The position numbers and the translations under genes are program-made. The notes under the pieces were generated by a model that did not search any database, had not been told where the DNA came from, and was given only the letters and a program-made list of their open reading frames with translations. This document shows positions 13,910-14,100 of a stretch of DNA of 64,000 bases, piece by piece; the stretch's first letter is position 1; each line of letters opens with the position of its first letter. Location of the stretch: the NCBI RefSeq assembly GCF_041886205.1, contig NZ_CP169029.1. The stretch is one strand, 5' to 3'. The stretch comes from Escherichia coli. Its GTDB lineage: Bacteria > Pseudomonadota > Gammaproteobacteria > Enterobacterales > Enterobacteriaceae.

Positions 13910-14100
13910 TGCCGGATGTGCCGCACAAAACCAGCAGTTTCAACGGATTGTAGGCCTGATAAGACGCGTCAAGCGTCGCATCAGGCATTTGGGCACGGCT
14001 GCCGGATGCGGCGTGAACGCCTTATCCAGCCTACAAAACCAGCATTTTCAACGGACTTGTAGGCCTGATAAGACGCGTCAAGCGTCGCATCCGGCATTTT
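13910..14100. repeat. BIME/REP cluster (three REP palindromic units in alternating orientation) between convergent ssuB and pepN
   Basis: REP-like units at about 13950-13986, 14001-14034 and 14059-14095; units 1 and 3 are near-identical, unit 2 is the partner type. Confidence 0.75.

Follow-up and report, generated by a model that had tools for sequence, protein, structure and literature searches.

Descriptions of REP/BIME arrays, of the variation of their copy number among strains and of IS1397 targeting them go back to the 1980s-1990s. The hallmarks of E. coli REPs are a GTAG foot and an imperfect stem; BIME-1 is a single-copy Z1-L-Y element with an IHF site in its long L linker, and BIME-2 is composed of Y and Z2 units joined by a short head-to-head linker, occurs in tandem and varies in copy number from strain to strain (PMC3333891). 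The closest described system for the locus treated here is REP325 (yjdM-yjdN, K-12), whose repeats bear the labels Y and Z2 in Qian et al. (PMC4550694). REP325 has been found by experiment to act as a partly Rho-dependent terminator and as an mRNA stabiliser, and genome-wide data from the same source suggest terminator/stabiliser roles for REPs of convergent gaps, 207 of 704 of which contain a REP (bioRxiv 10.64898/2026.03.23.713779).

The locus lies in a stretch of 64,000 nucleotides of E. coli DNA (contig NZ_CP169029.1), hereafter the window. According to the open reading frame list and the letters of the window, a 205-bp intergenic gap (13908-14112) separates two convergent genes: ssuB (13140-13907, + strand), for the aliphatic sulfonate ABC transporter ATPase of 255 aa, and pepN (14113-16725, - strand), for aminopeptidase N of 870 aa. 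For the gene names, which agree with the open reading frames and with the SsuB translation, we relied on how RefSeq annotates E. coli PT62, a strain 100% identical to the window over an 801-bp query. We are highly confident that the gap holds a BIME-2-type cluster of REPs, palindromic units of alternating Y and Z2 types, in a 3' UTR shared by the two convergent genes, with a stabiliser/attenuator role assigned from its class; the element itself is an ordinary member of an already known repeat class. The location is extragenic, every REP unit falling after the ssuB stop at 13907 and before the pepN stop at 14113, so that on the + strand the array is the 3' UTR of ssuB and on the - strand that of pepN.

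The array comprises three intact imperfect palindromes of 35-38 nt in alternating orientation. U1, of the Z2 type (GTAGGCCTGATAAGACGCGTCAAGCGTCGCATCAGGCA, 13950-13987, + strand), begins with GTAG (13950-13953) when read along the + strand and matches REP325 Z2 at 37 of 38 positions plus one gap. U2, of the Y type (TGCCGGATGCGGCGTGAACGCCTTATCCAGCCTAC, 14000-14034, - strand), ends in CTAC at 14031-14034 and matches REP325 Y at 33 of 35 positions. U3, again Z2 (14059-14096, + strand), carries its GTAG foot at 14059-14062, matches REP325 Z2 at 36 of 38 positions and shares 97% identity with U1; in other strains IS1397 is inserted in the U3 loop, GTCA at 14077-14080. U1 and U2 are separated by a 12-nt, S-like head-to-head linker (TTTGGGCACGGC, 13988-13999), which aligns with that of the naRNA4/REP325 model (11 nt). 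U2 and U3 are separated by a 24-nt tail-to-tail linker (AAAACCAGCATTTTCAACGGACTT, 14035-14058), and a 23-nt copy of this linker (AAAACCAGCAGTTTCAACGGATT, 13927-13949), with three mismatches relative to the other, lies on the tail side of U1. These two linker copies are the only ones in the 64-kb window, where chance would give 0.

Upstream of the first linker copy, the gap starts with TA and continues with a partial Y head arm, TGCCGGATGTGCCG followed by CAC (13910-13926, - strand). This segment matches the U2 head arm at 12 of 14 positions, and direct alignment of the two periods shows it to be a Y-type REP remnant that lacks approximately 20 nt internally. The layout is thus that of two copies of a Y-linker-Z2 period of approximately 109 bp, the first with a shortened Y; a repeat finder returned direct repeats spaced 108/109 bp as well as the inverted-repeat relations expected between the units. 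Tandem Repeats Finder reported no tandem repeat at the array, because fewer than two full periods are present and the first Y is deleted. The initial annotation of this DNA had described three alternating units, and these are indeed found where it had placed them, but it had left the fourth, degenerate Y remnant uncounted.

The assignment to the REP family rests on comparison with the Y and Z2 units of K-12 REP325, which served as the references. Within the window, BLAST (blastn-short) matched these reference units with E = 2e-12 for U1, 9e-11 for U2 and 4e-10 for U3, U1 and U3 each aligning to Z2 with one loop indel. An ungapped Hamming scan found U2 alone, with 0 matches in 100 second-order Markov shuffles. 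All of U1-U3 bear the hallmark GTAG/CTAC feet and stems with internal mismatches. The sequence is also highly repetitive: the 801-bp query, in which the gap alone is repeated sequence, matches a median of at least 32 places per E. coli genome, while the REP-less K-12 allele of the same locus has a median of one match per genome. The REP/BIME cluster that the initial annotation had proposed for the convergent ssuB-pepN gap is therefore borne out by the REP325 unit matches and by Rfam (below), and the comparison with REP families on which it had made its proposal depend gave significant matches (E from 4e-10 to 2e-12).

This is the only Y/Z2 REP cluster that blastn-short and Rfam locate in the whole 64 kb, fewer than would be expected for E. 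coli, given roughly one cluster per 13 kb in K-12. A 13-nt REP-like match at 27387-27399 was rejected as a chance hit to unrelated, non-palindromic sequence.

The Rfam match is to naRNA4 (RF02564, CssrE), at 13953-14031 on the - strand, where it takes in the Y and Z2 hairpins and the linker that joins them; with 82.2 bits it exceeds the gathering score of 59.5, and it is the sole such match in the window. The match covers the full-length model (positions 1-77), with both hairpins kept. A score above the gathering score could be taken to mean that the array is a gene for a naRNA4-type nucleoid sRNA that binds HU and condenses the chromosome, naRNA4 having been described as a two-hairpin Y + Z2 RNA from REP325 (PMC4550694). 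We consider this highly improbable. The Rfam model amounts to a single repeat of a BIME-2, and a match to it is therefore a sign of REP identity rather than of an sRNA gene; the family is defined on REP325 transcripts. No promoter-like site was found in or adjoining the gap, and most strains are without the element. The nucleoid role is itself disputed, a 2026 preprint of the same line of research having reported REP325/naRNA4 to be without measurable nucleoid compaction (bioRxiv 10.64898/2026.03.23.713779).

With REP325 the array shares both unit types at 94-97% identity, their alternation, a 3'-UTR location, a short head-to-head linker (12 nt here versus 11 nt, with partial identity in the alignment), a tandem period of approximately 100-110 bp and a copy number that varies among strains. 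It differs in having two periods rather than the six of REP325, with the first Y internally deleted, and in its tail-to-tail linker, the 24-nt AAAACCAGCATTTTCAACGGACTT here but the 17-nt AAATTCCCGCACCCTCC in REP325. The setting differs too: the array lies between convergent genes and REP325 within an operon, and K-12, the home of REP325, has no array at ssuB-pepN.

Judged by its sequence the array is BIME-2 and not BIME-1, because the partners of Y are of the Z2 type, the linkers are of 12 and 23-24 nt, and the layout is tandem. It has in common with BIME-1 (RIB/RIP) elements a Y REP and an extragenic position at the 3' ends of transcription units, but it is without Z1, the long L linker and an IHF consensus, and it is tandem where BIME-1 is single copy (PMC3333891). 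That it might nonetheless be a BIME-1/RIB-RIP element recruiting IHF is a reading for which one can cite a single 1-mismatch match to the IHF consensus WATCAANNNNTTR, in linker copy 1 at 13938-13950. The exact consensus is absent from the gap, however, and 1-mismatch sites number 69 in the window against 58 ± 8 expected, i.e. chance level; together with the Z2 identity of the Y-paired units by REP325 comparison and a 12-nt linker without the long L motif, this makes the reading extremely improbable. The IHF binding that the initial annotation had attributed to such arrays does not apply to this one.

We surveyed the locus in 5,426 complete E. coli genomes. An array allele is present in 2,248 of them (approximately 41%), intact in 2,046, and an allele with a 42-bp gap in 3,166 (approximately 58%), including K-12 MG1655, O157:H7 and ST131 EC958. 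The array itself exists in several sizes. The 205-bp gap of the window is found at at least 99% identity in 283 genomes, and the commonest array form has a gap of 206 bp, e.g. in O111:H8 and O103 strains; there is also an array allele with a 197-bp gap. In the 193/194-bp form, carried by UTI89, 536 and ATCC 25922, a 12-bp deletion takes out the U3 head arm. The 85-bp gap of strain FEA3 corresponds to the 194-bp form minus exactly one 109-bp period, and AST240 has a form with an insertion of 43 bp that includes an extra partial REP. This size series fits the published copy-number variation of BIME-2 (PMC3333891).

The array is moreover interrupted by IS1397 in approximately 200 complete genomes, with the alignment breaking at query position 221. 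In VTB96959v and PS_131_S11 the element sits in the U3 loop (14077-14080), flanked by a 4-bp GTCA target duplication, whereas in AST240 it is reversed relative to these and the duplication is of 3 bp, TCA; these differences in orientation and duplication indicate at least two independent events. The element occupies 2981-4413 of one extracted locus (L008), and its junctions also appear in two others (L098 and L100). IS1397 is reported to insert specifically into REPs (PMC1525189, PMC3333891). Strain-to-strain length variation, which had been anticipated for this locus, is thus found in the form of gaps of 42, 85, 193/194, 197 and 205/206 bp, the +43-bp form and the IS1397-disrupted forms, and the suggested comparison of copy number across strains yields one period fewer in the 85-bp form and an extra partial unit in the +43-bp form. 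The variation goes beyond the number of units: the majority allele is REP-less and differs within the ssuB coding sequence.

Both alleles occur within phylogroup B2, the array allele in 536 and the short allele in EC958. The ssu operon (window approximately 10300-13900, ssuADCB) is unusually mosaic, with 3-10% divergence per 200-bp bin between these two B2 strains, and their pepN genes are nearly identical past the first 200 bp, a pattern pointing to a recombination junction at the gap or close to it. From the presence of both alleles in B2 and the strong mosaicism of the operon, we conclude that the alleles have been shuffled by recombination. The neighborhood of the locus also varies by lineage, pyrD lying directly upstream of ssuE in the B2 strains 536 and EC958 and elf fimbrial genes adjoining ssuE in K-12; in the window, a PyrD leader is matched by Rfam at 2407-2480 (- strand, 97.9 bits).

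The short allele is not the product of a clean REP insertion or deletion, as the replaced segment begins inside ssuB. SsuB has 255 aa in both alleles, ending ...SEQPIRRHG* in the window and ...SETRLRKQG* in K-12. Alignment of the alleles places the allele-specific part at the last seven codons plus stop, QPIRRHG* at 13884-13907 (+ strand) against TRLRKQG* in K-12 (positions 778-801 of the K-12 locus, L001). The 42-bp gap is a perfect hairpin with a 12-13-bp stem, CCGAATGGCGGC-GCTATT-GCCGCCATTCGG (L001 743-772), followed by TTATTTAT, and a terminator scan called it an intrinsic terminator in the direction of ssuB, with a stem of 13 bp. The same scan, run on both strands of 13600-14400, found 0 sites in the array allele; no intrinsic terminator is matched there because the array has no U-tract with at least five T.

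These results bear on whether the units could be ordinary intrinsic (Rho-independent) terminators that merely resemble REPs. The hairpins are GC-rich, and on the + strand ATTTGGG follows U1 and ATTTTGG follows U3, as that reading would have it. The empty scan of both strands and the lack of a U-tract of at least five T make it very unlikely, as does the fact that these sequences belong to a repeat family present dozens of times in each genome; a real intrinsic terminator is present at this position, but in the alternative allele.

Which of the two gene ends is the older can be read from other genera. A ...R[RK]HG tail is common to the SsuB proteins of Citrobacter, Lelliottia, Trabulsiella, Pluralibacter, Leclercia and Pseudenterobacter, and the ...TRLRKQG tail is seen in E. 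coli-like sequences only. It follows that the array allele keeps the ancestral gene end and that the K-12 end is derived. One contig from an ENA metagenome (L094) has a short-type gap of 41 bp, a pepN stop of TAA rather than TGA, and an ssuB that shares only 92-94% identity with the E. coli alleles. Its source may be an Escherichia lineage other than E. coli, in which case the short allele would be old.

For comparison outside Escherichia, the C. werkmanii locus was obtained from a scan of outgroup contigs and further Citrobacter loci from exact-protein matches. The ssuB-pepN gap of C. werkmanii holds one Y-type REP, which aligns with U2, and a contig of the C. freundii complex has in the same gap a head-to-head REP pair, arranged as U1-linker-U2. 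A third Citrobacter (L092, approximately 1469-1513) has a 45-bp gap consisting of a near-perfect palindrome that starts with TGCCGGATG, a REP head arm, and ends with its complement CATCCGGCA, thus paralleling the K-12 hairpin. The left arm of the K-12 hairpin itself, CCGAATGGCGGCG, agrees with the Citrobacter Y-REP head arm at 12 of 13 positions. The K-12 allele and C. werkmanii share CCG(A/G)ATGGCGGCG, which is the Y head arm, and also CT(G/C)AGAAAACA(G/A)GG, which is 3' UTR in Citrobacter and coding in K-12. Recent import of either allele from Citrobacter was considered and ruled out, since ssuB identity is 92-98% among the E. coli alleles and 76-80% to Citrobacter.

We tentatively propose a history that we regard as plausible but short of probable, in which a single REP pair in the common ancestor of Escherichia and Citrobacter gave rise to both alleles, becoming a BIME-2 array in approximately 41% of E. 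coli and, in approximately 58%, a terminator accompanied by a 24-bp deletion that shifted the ssuB stop. In the array haplotype, the ancestral pair would have been amplified to a BIME-2, now the sole structure at the 3' ends of both genes. In the K-12 haplotype, loss of the GTAG foot and of the mismatches in the stem would have turned the Y unit into the perfect intrinsic terminator with its 12-13-bp stem, and the 24-bp deletion would have removed the old ssuB stop, so that K-12 SsuB would now end in seven codons drawn from the former 3' UTR. Given the parallel palindrome in Citrobacter, conversion of a REP to an intrinsic terminator may be recurrent, as far as these sequences indicate.

The array also invites comparison with REPIN doublets mobilised by RAYTs. 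As in those, a single long hairpin is predicted for the inverted units U2 and U3, with linker copy 2 as its apical loop, and the array has the features on which TnpA-REP binding depends, a GTAG foot and mismatches in the stem (PMC3333891). It differs in that the Citrobacter REP pair in the same gap suggests long residence rather than recent insertion. The array is one copy of a high-copy, non-autonomous repeat family of E. coli that the literature ties to TnpA-REP/RAYT, and its size variation could have come about through recombination or slippage from one 109-bp direct repeat to the other, or through the activity of TnpA-REP.

As RNA, the whole gap is predicted to fold at -100.9 kcal/mol on the + strand (z = -7.3) and -105.0 kcal/mol on the - strand (z = -7.7). 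The unit hairpins, with internal loops, are predicted at -15 to -22 kcal/mol on both strands (-21.8 / -21.3 kcal/mol for U1, -15.1 / -18.7 kcal/mol for U2), and the Y remnant does not fold alone (-6.6 kcal/mol, z = +0.5). REPs transcribed from either strand would thus form stable stem-loops able to block 3'-to-5' exonucleases. The array may further act as a partial, probably Rho-assisted terminator or attenuator for the ssuEADCB and pepN transcripts, in place of the canonical intrinsic terminator of K-12-type strains. By analogy with the class, we consider the array most likely to be a dispensable two-way stabiliser of mRNA 3' ends and an attenuator. Any such function must be dispensable, as most E. 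coli are without the array, and it is probably weak or replaceable, as arm deletions and IS insertion are tolerated and the array is absent in 58% of genomes.

Of the properties that the initial annotation had ascribed to such arrays, gyrase binding and mRNA stabilisation are class properties taken from the literature, and would extend to this locus by analogy. Maps of gyrase cleavage made in K-12, which is array-less here, show an enrichment of sites in BIME-2, principally at y-type REPs (PMC6379681); at the DNA level the Y unit is a candidate gyrase site. Effects of REPs depend on context, and terminal REPs are not generally tied to longer half-lives (Harris et al.). The distance of the units from the stop codons also matters for what may be expected: from the pepN stop to U3 it is 16 nt, and from the ssuB stop to U1, the first intact unit on the other side, 42 nt. 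REPs within approximately 15 nt of a stop codon have been reported to lower translation, and at these distances a strong effect on translation is not expected.

A serious, partly overlapping alternative is that the array, as purely selfish or neutral repeat DNA, does nothing for the host here and is kept only because it is harmless in a convergent gap. It is in keeping with this that the array is absent in 3,166 of 5,426 genomes, that the 194-bp and 85-bp alleles have lost REP arms, that IS1397 disrupts the array in approximately 200 genomes, and that the locus sits within a mosaic, recombining region. Yet neither transcript has another terminator or stabiliser in the long allele, and class experiments show effects of REPs on termination and stability (bioRxiv 10.64898/2026.03.23.713779). 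We rate the complete lack of function as possible but rather unlikely; selfishness is in any case a matter of origin, and it overlaps with the dispensable stabiliser/attenuator preferred here without excluding it.

That another REP array exists is in itself of little weight, and its practical value is modest. Catalogues based on K-12 miss this array, K-12 having none at the locus, and RefSeq leaves it unannotated. The end of the reference K-12 SsuB protein is a derived variant. Finally, the array and the intrinsic terminator constitute a natural allele pair for testing the role of convergent-gap REPs as terminators and stabilisers.
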